Of a DNA stretch of 64,000 nucleotides, positions 8,753-25,327 are shown piece by piece. The position numbers and the translations under genes are program-made. Origin of the DNA: Fimbriimonadia bacterium (lineage in GTDB: Bacteria > Armatimonadota > Fimbriimonadia > Fimbriimonadales > JABRVX01); assembly GCA_041483895.1 (NCBI GenBank), contig JBGPGO010000008.1, forward strand, positions 1 through 64,000, in the 5' to 3' direction. Position 1 is the stretch's first letter, and each line of letters opens with the position of its first letter. The notes below the pieces were generated by a model. It did no database searches. It was not told the origin of the DNA and saw only the letters and a program-made list of their open reading frames with translations.

Positions 8753-8778
8753 GATGGTATCATGCTCGAAACTGGGAG

Positions 8779-8831
8779 GGCGATGGAGTCCGCCAGAACC
8801 GTCCCGTTGTATCGGGGCTAATGGCTCCTAC
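8779..8831 (+). ncRNA. Fluoride riboswitch (crcB motif)
   Basis: GGCGATGGAGTCCGCC...AAC...GCTAATGGCTCCTAC matches the crcB consensus; lies upstream of an antiporter and DUF190. Confidence 0.92.
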
Positions 8832-8871
8832 TACAAAACCTCGGGCTAAATGCCCGTAGTAGGAGGCTAAG

Positions 8872-10068
8872 TTGGAACACGTTTGGTTTACCGCCGCCAT
8901 CTGGTTGGCGCTGGCAATCGCAGCCACAATCCTTGCAATCCATCTCCGAATTTCCGTTGCCCTCACGGAAATCGTCGTCGGCACGGTCGCCCAGCTCATA
9001 ATCGGCGCGGCGTTCGGCACAAAATCGCTGGGCGCCGGCGAAAGCTGGGTGACGTTCCTGGCCGGGACCGGCGCTATCATGCTCACCTTCCTAGCGGGGG
9101 CGGAACTGGATCCGAAATCGTTCCGCAAAGGCTTTTGGGGTGCCATGTCCGTCGGCCTGGTTTCTTTTGCCGCTCCATTTCTGTTCGCCACGGCGGTCGC
9201 GTTTTGGCTGCTCCATTGGGACGTTCGCGCCTCGTGGCTTTGCGGCATCGCGCTGTCCACGACCTCTGTGGCGGTGGTATACGCCGTCATGCTGGAGCTT
9301 GGCCTCAACCGAACCCAATTCGGCAAGGCCATTCTCGCCGCCTGTTTCATCACCGATCTCGGCACTGTTCTCGCGCTCGGCTTCATCTTTGCGCCGTTTA
9401 CGATGCGCACCTTGTGGTTTGCGATCGGGATGTTGGTCGGCATTTTCGTATTGCTTGGCGCGACGAAGCCGTTCTTTCGGCGCTATGGCAAACGGCCAAG
9501 TGAATTGGAGGCGAAGTTCCTGTTGCTCGCTCTCTTTGGTCTCGGAGGTCTCGCTGTTTGGGCGGGGTCCGAGGCGGTGTTGCCGGCATATCTGATTGGG
9601 ATGGTATTGGCCGGAACGGTTGGCAAGGATCACGCCTTGGTCCGCCGCCTGCGCACACTGACGTTTGGGTTGCTGACGCCGTTCTACTTCATTCGGGCGG
9701 GCTCGCTGGTCCAGTTGGGGGTGGTCGGTAGCGCGTTCGGCGTCTTCTTGGCGCTTTTTGGCGCGAAGATGATCGCAAAAATCGGTGGTGTGTTTCCGAT
9801 TTCGCTCCGGTTGGGGCACAGTGCTCGCAACGCGGCGTACGTAACGTTGCTCATGTCCACCGGCCTCACTTTCGGAACAATCTCGGCGTTGTATGGCCTG
9901 TCGCACGCCATCATCACGCAGGCACAGTATTCGCTGCTTGTCGCCACCGTAATTGGCAGCGCCGTAATACCGACCTGGATCGCCAACCGCTTCTTCTTGC
10001 CGCACGAACACCTTCCACCTTCTCCGGGAGCGGAAGAGGCGTTGGCATTCGCGACCGAGGACGACTGA
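8872..10068 (+). CDS. Cation:proton antiporter (CPA2 / Na+/H+ exchanger family)
   Basis: Many TM segments; FLAGAELD, STTSVAVV, PFYFIRAG; TTG start after AGGAGG. Confidence 0.9.
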   Translation: MEHVWFTAAIWLALAIAATILAIHLRISVALTEIVVGTVAQLIIGAAFGTKSLGAGESWVTFLAGTGAIMLTFLAGAELDPKSFRKGFWGAMSVGLVSFAAPFLFATAVAFWLLHWDVRASWLCGIALSTTSVAVVYAVMLELGLNRTQFGKAILAACFITDLGTVLALGFIFAPFTMRTLWFAIGMLVGIFVLLGATKPFFRRYGKRPSELEAKFLLLALFGLGGLAVWAGSEAVLPAYLIGMVLAGTVGKDHALVRRLRTLTFGLLTPFYFIRAGSLVQLGVVGSAFGVFLALFGAKMIAKIGGVFPISLRLGHSARNAAYVTLLMSTGLTFGTISALYGLSHAIITQAQYSLLVATVIGSAVIPTWIANRFFLPHEHLPPSPGAEEALAFATEDD

Positions 10069-11633: not shown

Positions 11634-13745
<2,112 letters not shown>

Positions 13746-18209: not shown

Positions 18210-18791
18210 ATGGAAGTACGAGCAAGCGTAAAGATGCAGCGCGTTCCGCCGAGAAAGGCTCGGTTTGTGATCGACCAGGTTCGGGGCATGCGGGCGATCG
18301 CGGCGATGAACATGCTGACTCACGTGCCGAACAAAGCGGCGGAGATCGTGAAGAAGCTGATCAAATCGGCGATGGCCAACGCCGTCGAGAATCACAACCT
18401 CAATGAGGAGGACCTCGTGGTCACCGAAATCTACGCCGACGGGGGACCGACGCTGAAGCGTATCAAGCCGCGCGCGATGGGCCGGGCCAACAGAATTCTA
18501 AAGCGCACGAGCCACATTGGGTTGATCGTCGAGGACATTCCGGAGGTTGCGAAGCCGAAGCAGCCCGCCCGCAAGAAGCCGGCCAAACTGGAACCGATCA
18601 AGGTGGCGGCTGTGGCTGCGCCCGTCGTTGAGGAAGCGCCTGCGGTCGAAGAGGCAACGGCCGTCGAGGAAGCTCCGGTGGAAGCCGTGGCAGAGGAAGC
18701 GACGGAACCGGCAGCGGAGGCAGTTGAGGAGCCGAAGCAGGAAGAGGCCGAAACACCCGCCGCCGAAGGCGAAGAGGTCAAAGAGGAGTAA
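18210..18791 (+). CDS. rplV: 50S ribosomal protein L22 with acidic C-terminal extension
   Basis: PRAMGRA..KRTSHI followed by a ~80-aa A/E/P-rich tail. Confidence 0.97.
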   Translation: MEVRASVKMQRVPPRKARFVIDQVRGMRAIAAMNMLTHVPNKAAEIVKKLIKSAMANAVENHNLNEEDLVVTEIYADGGPTLKRIKPRAMGRANRILKRTSHIGLIVEDIPEVAKPKQPARKKPAKLEPIKVAAVAAPVVEEAPAVEEATAVEEAPVEAVAEEATEPAAEAVEEPKQEEAETPAAEGEEVKEE

Positions 18792-19566: not shown

Positions 19567-20145
19567 ATGTTGATGCCAAAGCGTGTCAAATACAGGAAGG
19601 TGCACCGGGGCAGGCGCACGGGCAAAGCGACCGGGAGCTACAAGATCGATTTCGGCGAATTTGGCCTGCAGGCGATGGGCGCGTGCTGGCTGACCAATCG
19701 GCAAATTGAGGCCAGCCGAATTGCCATGACCCGCTACATCCGGCGCGGTGGAAAGGTGTGGATTCGGGTCTTCCCGGACAAGCCGTACACCAAAAAGCCC
19801 GCGGAGACCCGGATGGGATCCGGCAAAGGCAATCCCGAGGGATGGGTGGCGGTTGTGAAGCCGGGCCGCATCCTATTCGAGATGTCCGGGGTGCCGGAAG
19901 TCACGGCCAGAGAAGCGATCCGGCGGGCTATTCACAAGCTGCCGATTCGGGCGCGATTTGTCACTCGCCGCGACTTCGCCAAGCTCTACGAAGAGATGGG
20001 CGGCGAACCCGAACTCATTATGCCGAAAGAGGGCGAAGAGATGGACACTGAGATCCATCTGGAAGCCGGCGAGCACGATACGGTGGCAGTTGCCGCGCCG
20101 ACCGAAGAAAAAGTGCCGCCGCCGGAGGCCGGGGGGGAAGCATGA
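19567..20145 (+). CDS. rplP: 50S ribosomal protein L16 with acidic C-terminal extension
   Basis: [16 protein letters not shown]. Confidence 0.98.
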
Positions 20146-20986: not shown

Positions 20987-21342
20987 TGGATAAGAAGCGG
21001 CCTACACAGCCTTTGGGCAAGATGAAGGTGCGGACCGGCGATATCGTGATCGTGATCGCCGGGAAAGATAAGGGTCAGCATGGCAAGGTGACGACGGTGA
21101 ACCGGGTCAGCCGGCGCATCACGATCGAAGGCGTCAACATGGGCACGAAGCATGTGAAGCCCATACAATCGGCAAGCATGAATCGGCCGGGAGACAGAGT
21201 GCAGCGCGCGATGCCGCTGCATATTTCCAACGTCATGCTCGCTGATCCGAAAACGGGAAAACCGACGCGAATCGGCCGCAAAGAGATCGATGGCAAGATG
21301 GTCCGCTACGCGAAGGATTCCGGGGAGCAACTGGAGAGCTAA
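20986..21342 (+). CDS. rplX: 50S ribosomal protein L24
   Basis: GD.V.VIAGKDKG, HISNV. Confidence 0.98.
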   Translation: MDKKRPTQPLGKMKVRTGDIVIVIAGKDKGQHGKVTTVNRVSRRITIEGVNMGTKHVKPIQSASMNRPGDRVQRAMPLHISNVMLADPKTGKPTRIGRKEIDGKMVRYAKDSGEQLES

Positions 21343-22017
21343 ATGGCAGACAAGATAGACAAGGCAGAAAAGGGCGGCAAGAAGGAACCGAAGGGCAAGG
21401 TCAAGGGCAAGGGCGGCGGCGGCGCCGCGATTGCAACAGCTACCGCCGCGGAATTGGCGACGGTTCCGCCTTCGCGGCTGCATCAAAAGTATAAGGATTC
21501 TATCGTTCCGGCTCTCAAAGAACAGTTCGGATACAAGTCGCTTCTGGCGGTTCCGCGGCTGGACAAGATCGTGGTCAACATGGGAATTGGCCGGGCCGAG
21601 GATGATGCCAAGCAGTTGGAGAATTCCGTTCGGGACCTGACTCTTATCGCGGGCCAGCGGCCGGTGGTCACGAAGGCTAAGAAAGCGATTTCAAACTTCA
21701 AGATTCGGGAAGGGAACAAGGTCGGATGCCGGGTCACATTACGCGGCGAGCGCATGTATCACTTTTTCGATAAGCTGGTCTCCATCGTGCTGCCAAGACT
21801 TCGCGACTTTCGCGGCCTATCGCCGAAGGCATTCGATGGCAGAGGCAATTACGCATTGGGTCTAAAAGAGCAGATTATTTTTCCGGAGATTTCTTACGAT
21901 ACCTTCGACAAGCTGCGTGGCATGGATGTGGTGATCTGCACCACTGCCAAAACGGATGAAGAGGCCAGGGTGTTCCTCAAGAAGATGGGAATGCCGATTC
22001 GGGAAGCAACTCAATAG
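21343..22017 (+). CDS. rplE: 50S ribosomal protein L5 with N-terminal extension
   Basis: [23 protein letters not shown]. Confidence 0.98.
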
Positions 22018-22032
22018 AGAGGGATTTGGGAT

Positions 22033-24102
22033 TTGAAGAAGTACAGCGCTGACAAGATTCGCAACGTGGCACTCGTAGGACATGGCGGTTCGGGAAAAAC
22101 AACCTTGGCCGAGCATATCCTATTCATATCCGGCGCCACGGACCGAGTTGGCACGGTGGAGGCCGGAAACACAGTTTCCGACTATGATCCGCTGGAGCAG
22201 AAGCGCAAGATCAGCCTGAACGCATCGGTTCTTCCCATCGAGTGGAGGGACCACAAAATCAACCTGATCGATGTTCCCGGATACCCGGACTTTATTGGCG
22301 ACCTGTTCGGCGTCTGTCAGGTGGTCGAATCCATGGTTATCGTTACCGAGGCCAAGGACCACACAGACGTCGGTTTCGAAAACGCGTGGGAAGAAGCAGA
22401 GATCGATGCCCTGCCGCGCATGATTTTTGTCAACAAGATGGAGCGGGAAAACGCCGACTTTCCCGGCCTCGTCCGGTTCTTGGAGAACTCGTACGGCCGC
22501 AAAGTGGTGCCCATCCACATGCCGATCGGCTCCCAACTCGAATTCAAGGGTGTGATAGACCTGCTGGAAATGAAGGCCTATGTCGGCCATGACAAGGACC
22601 TGCACGCGGAGGATATCCCGGCGGACCTGCTGGCGGAAGCGGAAGCCATGCGGGAAAAGGTGGTGGACGCGGCGACCATCGCGGATGATGAATTGGCGCT
22701 GAAATATCTCGAGGGCGAGTCGGTGACTCCCGACGAGGTGATGCACGGCCTCCTGCTTGGCGTGGAGCAGGGAAGGGTGGTCCCGGTGTGTATCGGGTCG
22801 GCGGCGCATGGCATCGGCGTCGGCCTTCTCGTGGATAGAATCGTCGGCGCGCTTCCCGCTCCGACCGATATGCCGCACAAGGCGGGCGATAAGGAACTTG
22901 AATCGGATGAGGGAGGACCGCTGGCCGCGCTGGTATTCAAGTCTACGGCCGATCCGTATGTCGGCAAGATCAGCTTCTTCCGGGTTTTCAGCGGAACATT
23001 CACCAGCGACAGCCACGTGTGGAATCCGAACCGCGAAAAGGACGAGCGGGTGGGTCAGGTGTTTTGCCCACGTGGAAAAACTCAGGAATCGACACCAGCG
23101 GTCGGCGCCGGAGACATCGGGGCGGTCGCCAAGCTGCAGGAGACTCGAACCGGCGATACATTGACGACGAAGGGTTCGGGCATTCAATTCGAGCCGTTCC
23201 ACTATCCCGGCCCGATATACAGCATCGCCATCCACGCGGCGACAAAGGCGGACGAAGACAAGCTCGGACCGGCCATGATGCGATTGGCGGACGAGGACCC
23301 CACCTTCGTATCGCGGCAAGACCCAGAGTTGAACCAGACGATTTTGTCCGGCATGGGGGATCTGCACCTCGACGTGACAATCGAGCGCCTTCACAACAAG
23401 TTTGGCGTGAACGTCGAGACCGAGGAGGCGAGGGTGGCCTATCGCGAGACGGTGCGATCGAGCGCCACCGCCGAAGGAAAGCACAAGAAGCAGACGGGTG
23501 GCCGCGGACAGTACGGCCATTGCAAGATCGAAATGGAGCCACTCGATCGTGGGGCCGGTTACGAATTCGTCGACAAAGTAGTCGGTGGAGCGATTCCCCG
23601 CAACTTCATCCCAGCGGTCGAAAAGGGAATTCGCGAGGCGCTGACCAAAGGCATCCAGGCCGGGTATCCCGTGGTGGACCTGCGGACTACGCTTGTCTTT
23701 GGCTCCTACCATGATGTGGACTCGAGCGAGGCGGCGTTTAAAATGGCTGGGCAGCTAGCCTTCCGGAATGCGGCGGCGCTGGCTCAACCCACGATGCTGG
23801 AGCCGATTGTGTTGGTGGACATCATCGTGCCGGAAGAGTATGTCGGCGACATCAACAGCGATCTGAACGGGCGGCGAGGCCGGTTGCTGGGTATGGAGGC
23901 CATCGGTTCGGGCCGGCAGCGCATACGGGCTCATGTGCCTCAGGGCGAAATGATGAAGTACGCCCTCGACCTGCGCTCGATCACCCGGGGACGGGGCAAA
24001 TTCGCCACTGAATTCGATCACTATGAGGAATTGCCCGCGAACGTTATCCAGGAGCTCGTGAAGAAGCACGAGCGCGAGAGGAAAGAAGAGCAAGAGGACT
24101 AG
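22033..24102 (+). CDS. Divergent elongation factor G paralog (EF-G2 / EF-G-like)
   Basis: Full-length [48 protein letters not shown] start. Confidence 0.93.
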
Positions 24103-24163
24103 CCGGCTTGGGGTACACTTGCCGGTCGGCTGCGGGAACGGTTCGATTGGAGGATCTATATCT

Positions 24164-24349
24164 ATGGCAAAGACCTGTTTGATAAATAAGGCGAAACTGA
24201 AGCCGAAGTATAAGGTGCGCGGTTACACGCGATGCAACGTGTGCGGTCGGCCACGTGGCGTCTTTAAGTACTTTGGCCTTTGCCGAATTTGCCTGCGTGA
24301 GCTAGCCCACAAAGGCGTACTGCCGGGTGTGACAAAGTCGAGTTGGTAG
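24164..24349 (+). CDS. rpsZ: 30S ribosomal protein S14, zinc-binding type Z
   Basis: CNVC...CRIC; ATG after GGAGG. Confidence 0.97.
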
Positions 24350-24358
24350 GAGTAAGAG

Positions 24359-24754
24359 ATGCACAGTGACCCGATAGCGGACATGTTGACAAGAATTCGG
24401 AATGGGGGACGAGCCCACCTGACGCAGGTGGACATGCCCGCGTCTGGAGTGAAGCAGTCATTGGCCAAGATCCTCCAAGATGAAGGGCTGATCACCAGCT
24501 TTGAACTGGTCAAGGACACGAAGTTTCCGACGCTCCGCGTCCAGTTGAAGTATTTCCAGGATAAGAAGCACGCGATCCGAATCATCCGCCGGATCAGCAA
24601 ACCGGGCTTGCGGGTGTACTCATCGAGCGAGAAGCTGCGCCCGGTCCGAAACGGTCTCGCGACGCAGGTGGTGTCCACCTCGCAAGGCATTATGACCGAC
24701 CGAGATGCCCGCAGAAGGCATATCGGCGGGGAAGTAATGTTCGAAGTTTGGTAA
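24359..24754 (+). CDS. rpsH: 30S ribosomal protein S8
   Basis: DPIADMLTRIRN, SKPGLRVY. Confidence 0.99.
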   Translation: MHSDPIADMLTRIRNGGRAHLTQVDMPASGVKQSLAKILQDEGLITSFELVKDTKFPTLRVQLKYFQDKKHAIRIIRRISKPGLRVYSSSEKLRPVRNGLATQVVSTSQGIMTDRDARRRHIGGEVMFEVW

Positions 24755-24766
24755 AGGACGACAGAT

Positions 24767-25327
24767 ATGTCTAGAGTAGGGAGAAAACCGATAACCGTGC
24801 CCGGCAACGTGACCGTCACCAATCAGGACGGCCACATCACCGTGAAAGGTCCGAAGGGCGAACTGGCCTGCCGGGTCGAGCCGCGCCTGGAAGTCAAACA
24901 GGAGAACGGCATCATTGCCCTTGAGCGGCCAACCAACGAGTCCTACATGCGCCAGCAGCACGGATTGGCGCGGACCCTGATTGACAATTTAGTAATCGGA
25001 GTAACCGAAGGTTTCACGAAAAACCTTACGTTGGTCGGCGTTGGATACAGGGCAACGTTGGACGGGAAGAACCTCGTGATGAGCCTTGGCTTCTCGCATC
25101 CTGTGATTGTTGAGCCCAGGCCGGGAATCACGTTCACAATCGAACCCGGTGATCGAACGCGGCCCATGTCCATCAACGTGGCCGGAATTGACAAGCAGGT
25201 TGTCGGGCAGCAGGCCGCCGACATCCGACGAAAGCGTCCGCCGGACTCGTATAAGGGCAAGGGCGTCCGATACGTAGGCGAGGTGGTCAAGACCAAGCCG
25301 GGCAAGCGCGGCGTGGCTGGTAAGTAG
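24767..25327 (+). CDS. rplF: 50S ribosomal protein L6
   Basis: [17 protein letters not shown]. Confidence 0.99.

Follow-up and report, generated by a model that had tools for sequence, protein, structure and literature searches.

Why does a second gene for elongation factor G (EF-G) stand in the middle of a ribosomal-protein operon, and what might its product do there? The question was raised by a window of 64,000 nucleotides of a Fimbriimonadia bacterium from the phylum Armatimonadota (contig JBGPGO010000008.1, positions 1 to 64,000), in which the str-S10-spc-alpha cluster is present intact and an EF-G paralog, EF-G2, separates rplE from rpsN. The paralog is of the EFG II type, the commonest bacterial paralog of EF-G, whose cellular role is unsettled and whose studied members are linked to stress or starvation and biochemically discordant. 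A large insertion retained in the gene cluster that bacteria conserve most strongly is uncommon in itself, and a phylum with an operon-wired EFG II, together with natural controls in which the gene has moved or been lost, makes the alternative 'constitutive helper or stress factor' testable. According to the reading that we favour, to which we give about an even chance, an EFG II paralog was fixed early in the super-operon, was inherited vertically and is made together with ribosomes as a dispensable, GTPase-poor accessory translocase.

An EFG II-type gene between rplE and rpsN

The gap between rplE and rpsN (22018-24163) holds a single open reading frame (ORF), the EF-G2 gene itself, at 22033-24102 of the plus strand (689 aa, TTG start). 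Re-reading of the sequence and the NCBIfam models agree with the placement, the spacers and the G1-G3 motifs given in the original prediction. Upstream, rplE (uL5; 21343-22017, plus strand) scored 280.6 bits with NF000585 against a cut-off of 186, the match starting from residue 44; its stop codon ends at 22017 and is followed by a spacer of 15 nt (22018-22032) with a Shine-Dalgarno (SD)-like purine run, AGAGGGA, before the TTG. Downstream, a spacer of 61 nt (24103-24163) with a GGAGG SD sequence leads to the ATG of type-Z rpsN (uS14; 24164-24349, plus strand; NF005974, 109.4 bits against 77) and then to rpsH (uS8; 24359-24754, plus strand), all three flanking genes scoring above the NCBIfam cut-offs. 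The canonical fusA (EFG I), which had been placed 10 kb upstream, was found in the str operon at about 11634-13745 (plus strand; TIGR00484, 1063 bits), 10.4 kb away start to start and with every motif intact. The assembly contains no third full-length EF-G gene.

By its sequence, EF-G2 is a member of the EFG II subfamily and thus of an already known type. With NF009381 it scored 886.7 bits against 583, with all five EF-G domains present, and in a tree of 124 EFG II-type and 10 EFG I rows, split from each other at 100% support, it stood on the EFG II side; an EF-G phylogeny had been proposed as a check. In the accessible text of Margus et al. 2011 (PMC3150367), the subfamily is recognised by its place in the tree, by a G2 relaxed to contain Ser and by residues such as Gly16, Leu25, Ser61, Gly333 and Lys352. 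In EF-G2, the P-loop G1, GHGGSGKTT (residues 16-24; 22078-22104), starts with Gly16 and is followed by Leu25, and G2 in switch I reads RKISL (residues 58-62; 22204-22218), a relaxed xxxSx in which Ser61 replaces the Thr of RGITI. These five type I positions (1WDT numbering) are occupied as described, by G16, L25, S61, G348 and K367, of which the last two were located in the alignment from the Ala and Gly that EFG I has there. At a further type I position, Thr291 (81% conserved; Ile in EFG I), EF-G2 has Ser304, fusA has Ile and the Armatimonadota consensus is Thr. The patterns GhxxxGKT of G1 and DxPG of G3 are both conserved, the latter as DVPGY in switch II (residues 80-84; 22270-22284) with Tyr84 at the catalytic His position, and a second EF-G, the canonical fusA, is encoded alongside. 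With canonical EF-G the protein shares fold, length and the domain IV loops, but it is only 40% identical, lacks RGITI and DTPGH and is encoded outside the str operon. It narrowly passed the canonical model TIGR00484 (670 against 659 bits), and failed NF058620 for Bacteroides EF-G2 (579 against 1000 bits, in two stretches), NF009377 for actinobacterial EF-G2 (664.8 against 890 bits) and the Tet ribosomal protection models (best score 288.6 bits, cut-offs 775-1425 bits).

The GTPase motifs had been put forward as divergent, and the changes are real; as an oddity of this protein they do not hold, being diagnostic of the whole subfamily. For this comparison, we aligned 125 EFG II sequences, 38 and 30 of them from the two operon sites A and B defined below, 19 stand-alone copies labelled Armatimonadota and 38 from other phyla. 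The switch II His was kept in none of the 125, Tyr or Phe being usual; since replacement of this His by Tyr or Phe and an RxxSx switch I are the EFG II norm, the motif changes are no surprise. In site-B copies of two families (f13 and f36; L031, L032, L183, L184 and L200), Gly or Leu stands in place of the catalytic His (DTPGG, DTPGL). One change had not been listed: G4 (22432-22443) reads NKME and not NKxD, with Glu in place of the guanine-reading Asp. NKxD is reported as conserved in EFG II in the accessible text of PMC3150367, and EF-G2 departs from it; Glu stands at this position in 19 of the 38 copies at site A and in 13 of the 19 stand-alone copies labelled Armatimonadota, compared to 2 of 38 from other phyla. 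The Glu is a drift within lineages of a motif common to GTPases and not a subfamily-diagnostic feature, membership being decided by the tree and the type I positions; NKME may make guanine binding weaker.

Domain IV is the best-kept part of the protein. Loop I (QTGG in EF-G2; 23491-23502) is invariant as Q-x-G-G in all 125 sequences, and so is loop II (H-D-V-D-S; 23710-23724) as H-x-x-D-S (H560, D563, S564). Identities for domains I to V were 50/54/56/64/62% among site-A and 42/40/44/59/55% among site-B copies, so that domain IV reached 59-64% within each EFG II group compared to 40-54% for domains I-II of the in-operon copies. Stand-alone Armatimonadota copies have the same domain pattern, and operon position thus leaves no visible mark on the protein.

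Gene order across Armatimonadota and beyond

It is the context, not the protein, that is the unusual part of this locus. The family and its motifs were known before, and so was the probable activity: the Armatimonadota copies share with the subfamily at large (PMC3150367, PMC4342817; NF009381/PRK12740) the five domains, Gly16, Leu25, Ser61 and an RxxSx switch I of the Chloroflexi/Clostridia-like variant as well as, going by the accessible text of PMC3150367, relaxed domains I-III, a conserved domain IV and the constant company of EFG I. They differ in being fixed in the S10-spc cluster at two alternative sites and in often having NKxE as G4. In the accessible text of PMC3150367, a conserved gene context is described for EFG I alone (str operon), and full-text searches, which covered main texts and few subscription journals, gave no paper that places EFG II within the S10-spc cluster. 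As far as we found, the operon arrangement has not been described before; to it we add the scoring of both sites on one sample, tests of a single origin, the pattern of loss and relocation, the drift of G4 and a possible lineage outside the phylum.

Site A is the junction between rplE and rpsN. Site B is the junction between rpsQ and rplN, uninterrupted in this genome (20348-20986, plus strand) and occupied by EFG II in 17 other families of the phylum. Among 201 genomes of the phylum searched, 113 had a match at E <= 1e-188, and relative to rpsN these lay at most 400 nt upstream (68), 0.4-5 kb upstream (19), on another contig (16), far away (3) or in genomes with no listed S14 (7); the placements exclude 10 second matches, which are canonical EF-G, and one of the 16 other-contig rows (G113) is canonical EF-G as well. 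Mapping of 60 chosen loci gave 22 at site A, one partial, 22 at site B and 15 without EFG II there, and later maps added eight site-B loci and one site-A locus. The site-B proteins are likewise EFG II. Scored by family codes, several of which rest on a single genome and which as kin are not independent, EFG II lies inside the S10-spc cluster in 39 of 44 (22 at site A and 17 at site B) and at neither site in five (f2, f6, f8, f16 and f31). Thirty loci from the genome's own order comprised 17 with rplE-fusA2-rpsN, the present one included, two with fusA2-rpsN only (one at a contig end, the other with a DNA methylase gene between fusA2 and rplE) and 11 stand-alone copies, of which eight are from family f2 and three from genus g8. 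The synteny survey across Armatimonadota that had been suggested thus finds the insertion again and again and shows it to be not specific to this genome but as old as the phylum, with a second site.

Outside the phylum, nothing separated rplE from rpsN in any of 30 Chloroflexota loci or of the 29 Bacillota loci with data, the state that had been described as normal. Site B was assessed there by outgroup loci only, and no EF-G was found at rpsQ-rplN in the Chloroflexota and Bacillota loci where the junction was covered; a metagenome scan with a site-B junction pattern gave 0 matches, a null that carries no weight because the pattern also matched 0 of our own 30 site-B loci. The best 80 loci from titled genomes, among the matches listed, consisted of 28 canonical fusA, 48 EFG II of other phyla and four labelled Armatimonadota, all four stand-alone and one (L154) outside the phylum branch in a tree. 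An r-protein neighbour was found in none of the 48, within the flanks covered, in line with the earlier statement that EF-G2 paralogs usually stand alone.

A pattern scan of metagenomes for site A gave at least 76 loci, 40 with rplE directly before EFG II and 36 without rplE adjoining, an undercount since no more than 9 of the 38 known loci fit the pattern. Long metagenome loci fell into the main site-A clade in 26 of 27 cases; L275 (2079-4961) and its close relative L286 fell elsewhere, and both have the site-A order rplE-EFG II-rpsN. In the best topologies of two trees (88%, a quick tree, and 97%), the r-proteins of L275 and L286 lay outside the sampled Armatimonadota, a branch with 97% support. 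The nearest named L5 matches of this lineage are from Armatimonadota and Bacillota (73-75%), and public records with proteins identical to those of L275 and L286 are labelled only 'bacterium'; in four of them L5 and S14 are exactly one gene number apart from being consecutive, with a single number left between the two. We dropped the placement of L275 firmly outside the phylum, since joining it to the site-A clade was not rejected (p-AU 0.52). L275 would then represent a sister lineage or else a deep branch missing from the sample.

Origin, relocation and loss

In r-protein trees, most site-A genomes formed one (starred) clade and the site-B genomes made up the other deep lineages, with site-A genomes of f20 and, in some trees, f14 falling among the latter; all site-A genomes as one clade was not rejected (p-AU 0.74). 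The main site-A clade of EF-G2 had 100% SH-aLRT support and followed the family codes. In free EF-G trees, site-A and site-B copies did not form one clade, which suggested two independent insertions, but a single origin of all in-operon EF-G2 was not rejected either (p-AU 0.40); we did not adopt independent insertions, possible as they are. The simplest reading of the sequence data would be one entry into the cluster, early in the history of Armatimonadota and followed by vertical inheritance, and one local hop over the three genes rplN-rplX-rplE connecting sites A (rplE-fusA2-rpsN) and B (rpsQ-fusA2-rplN). The order in L275 hints that site A is the older. For a phylum with poorly resolved deep branching, the A and B orders offer a rare-genomic-change character.

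A profile built from 27 rows was run against genomes chosen for lacking an earlier match. It detected no full EFG II in 4/4 genomes of f16, 5/5 of f32 (one with a partial match), 2/3 of f11, 2/2 of f2, 3/6 of f8 and 1/2 of f31; five of the genomes in which none was found are single-contig, one of these with a partial match. Relocation was seen in f2 and g8, where the cluster is split at rplE|rpsN, with rplE, fusA2 and rpsN-rpsH at three places, and where all eight f2 copies and three of four g8 copies of the order sample are stand-alone. Repeated loss and relocation, with canonical fusA intact, argue against an essential housekeeping role, and in that sense the housekeeping function originally proposed has to be given up. 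In every one of the 26 genomes checked that have an in-operon copy, canonical EF-G had its motifs intact; a division of labour between the two proteins was rejected for this lack of complementary decay.

Several observations were made alongside. In f2 and g8 (L059-L061, L206-L215), rpsN-rpsH-rplF begin a separate, distant cluster, and in four f2 genomes (L005, L007, L016 and L026) a gene with an HDOD domain lies directly downstream of the stand-alone EFG II on the opposite strand. The canonical EF-G gene of one f2 genome (G162, L196) had no match to rpsL, rpsG or tuf within 1.5 kb on either side, which may point to a rearranged str operon. For canonical EF-G, agreement of domain IV with an outside consensus had a mean of 74% in 16 genomes in which no EFG II was found, versus 84% in the 26 with an in-operon copy, a comparison (L186-L199, L378, L393, L394 and L397) made on few independent lineages and against an outside set selected by pattern in the same region. 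Before loop I of canonical EF-G, VPFKRQ, GLFKKQ or YKHVKQ was found in f11, f32, f16 and f8, and not in the two f2 losses.

This history also admits a possible, though less probable, account in which the gene is a hitchhiker: an ordinary EFG II landed once, was tolerated and hard to remove, and was expressed well enough from this position without being selected for co-regulation, its product acting as any stand-alone EFG II (e.g. by binding idle ribosomes under stress) with control exerted post-transcriptionally. The stand-alone copies and split operons of f2 and g8, the genomes without EFG II by profile and the likeness of the sequence pattern in and out of the operon all agree with it, and so does the presence of unrelated passengers at the same junction in single genomes, namely a methyltransferase (G063), a peptidase-M64 (G108) and a DNA methylase (G008). 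The passengers, however, are confined to one genome each, whereas EFG II has been kept far longer, in 39 of 44 family codes; moreover, the gene stayed within the cluster when moving between A and B, and overlaps with rpsN recur in several families. As to the layout of these loci, the methyltransferase is accompanied by a glycosyltransferase-like gene in the absence of EFG II (L055), the peptidase-M64 gene follows EFG II (L041) and the DNA methylase, which is of the N6/N4 type and has a RAMA domain, precedes it (L209).

Going further than our preferred reading, the position itself might be under selection, with two sites kept for the age of the phylum and partly coupled in translation to uS14, a GTPase-poor EFG II being made constitutively, keeping pace with ribosomes, as a standing second translocase by Armatimonadota and by one or more other deep lineages, and the losers remodelling domain IV of canonical EF-G. 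We consider this bolder version rather unlikely. If true, EFG II would work in normal growth and not as a starvation factor, and the gene order would be a rare marker that splits the phylum in two.

Probable function

In the accessory-translocase reading that we prefer, EF-G2 would bind the factor site of the 70S ribosome, and its intact domain IV loops would power slow translocation while ribosome-stimulated GTP hydrolysis stays low or absent. The low GTPase activity would follow from the missing switch II His, the relaxed G1, G2 and G5 and, in many copies, the Glu in G4. EF-G2 would thus be a standing, dispensable translocase beside canonical EF-G for times of GTP shortage or for stalled ribosomes, needing no starvation-induced transcription.

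Bacteroides EF-G2 carries an insertion in domain IV. The match of our protein to B. thetaiotaomicron EF-G2 (fusA2, BT2167; PDB 7UVP/8DMF; NF058620) breaks after residue ~508 and our protein is 29 aa shorter, which is consistent with lack of this insertion; what the two have in common is the EFG II type, the B. thetaiotaomicron protein being described as non-essential in culture and slow in translocation (bioRxiv 2026.05.25.727771 and PMC6989115, accessible parts). The structural prototype of EFG II is T. thermophilus EF-G-2 (PDB 1WDT/2DY1), matched by phmmer at E 2.6e-129 over 8-681. It is distant, canonical T. thermophilus-type EF-G chains scoring higher, and is reported to translocate and to have kept its GTPase (bioRxiv 2026.05.25.727771, accessible part). 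M. smegmatis EF-G2 (PDB 9K10; NF009377) is likewise a Tyr-type paralog and dispensable, but stress-specific; the same accessible part gives it minimal ribosome-dependent GTPase, no recycling activity, a position displaced from the SRL and tRNA and a role as stress regulator, and reports that H88Y nearly abolishes the GTPase of M. smegmatis EF-G1. According to the accessible text of PMC4342817, EFGII can substitute for EF-G with much slower translocation. The characterised EFG II proteins thus disagree, and translocase activity is not guaranteed.

Among the three roles originally proposed (recycling, assembly and low-GTP translocation), slow or low-GTP translocation would fit the invariant domain IV loops, which a slow, GTPase-poor accessory translocase explains better than a recycling factor does. 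A dedicated factor for ribosome recycling or subunit assembly, acting on new or post-termination ribosomes, is in our view improbable, and recycling is the least supported of the three. Co-location with r-proteins would suit such a factor, and other EF-G-family GTPases act in this way, e.g. spdEFG2 in Borrelia (PMC3150367, accessible text). Against it, EF-G2 is an EFG II and not an EFG I-derived copy, canonical EF-G shows no complementary decay in the in-operon genomes, the gene was repeatedly lost, its best-kept features are the tRNA-contacting loops of domain IV, and the mycobacterial EFG II cannot recycle (bioRxiv 2026.05.25.727771, accessible part). As for spdEFG2 itself, which groups with mtEFG2 and occurs with spdEFG1 where EFG I is absent (PMC3150367, accessible text), the presence of EFG I here and the EFG II type I positions argue against a relation, our trees being built without spdEFG rows.

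Probable expression together with ribosomal proteins

In the 38 loci of site A, the spacers on the two sides of EFG II have medians of 22 and 51.5 nt; in the 30 loci of site B, the medians are 34 and 29 nt. Seven of the 38 site-A copies run up to rpsN without a gap or overlap it. Hairpins resembling terminators were found at the two junctions in 4 and 2 of the 38 site-A loci and in 1 and 0 of the 30 site-B loci. No terminator- or promoter-like site was found at either EF-G2 junction in the window: the fold of the 15-nt spacer had a z of -0.45, and the GC hairpin of the 61-nt spacer was no better than shuffles (z 0.65) and lacks a U tract. Five folds of the spacers in all did not exceed shuffles as evidence of structured RNA, and Rfam over 8-36 kb found a fluoride riboswitch only. 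Short spacers, occasional overlaps and few terminator-like hairpins indicate that EF-G2 is likely co-transcribed with the r-proteins, so that the co-expression originally proposed stands as a probable arrangement. The gene would be transcribed from the upstream operon promoter or promoters and translated from its own SD sequence, with an output roughly in step with ribosomes; its position suggests synthesis along with ribosomes rather than under starvation only.

It is very unlikely that fusA2 is merely located in the cluster and is transcribed separately from an internal, e.g. stress-induced, promoter. Bacteroides fusA2 sets a precedent: it has a starvation-induced promoter of its own, the opposite of r-protein regulation, and rises 238-fold on carbon limitation while fusA falls 10-fold (PMC6989115, accessible text). 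The operon breaks of f2 and g8 at this very junction also indicate that promoters can arise there, and a weak match to a promoter is present within rplX (21140-21169). However, the 4 kb scanned contained only two promoter-like sites, where 1.1 +/- 1.2 were expected; the spacers are too short for a terminator plus promoter, and rpsN and rpsH need read-through.

Two further features were considered. The codon score of EF-G2 lies at the 82.5th percentile of 2171 ORFs and that of fusA at 78.7, a measure that discriminates little because codon bias in this genome is weak. Non-ATG starts were found in 19/42 site-A, 10/30 site-B and 10/21 stand-alone copies compared to 4/42 outside; the idea that the weak start codon marks reduced translation was rejected, since several r-protein ORFs in the window also start with TTG or GTG.

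Integrity of the locus and other features of the window

That the arrangement is an assembly artefact or a recent horizontal insertion is already refuted: the source genome is a 43-contig assembly, but both junctions are bridged by contigs of public DNA runs (rplE|EF-G2 by records X1, 21979-22233, and X4, 21397-22124; EF-G2|rpsN by X2, 23887-24956, and X3, 23680-24372) with no letter differences listed, each contig covering part of the stretch and the runs perhaps stemming from one campaign, the identical gene order is found in dozens of genomes including single-contig ones, and the GC (0.593) and GC3 (0.741) of the gene match its neighbours while its tree tracks the family codes.

Within the window, uL5 has an N-terminal extension of ~43 aa that is of low complexity and rich in K, G and A (21343-21471), and two r-proteins extend C-terminally past their family models, uL22 (193 aa; 18210-18791) by ~85 aa and uL16 (192 aa; 19567-20145) by ~65 aa. 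An antisense open frame of 530 aa under the EF-G2 gene (22120-23712, minus strand), for which no NCBIfam match was found, is most likely a shadow frame. The fluoride riboswitch (RF01734, 50.7 bits; 8770-8837) lies directly 5' of an ORF for a CPA2-like cation/proton antiporter (398 aa; 8872-10068).
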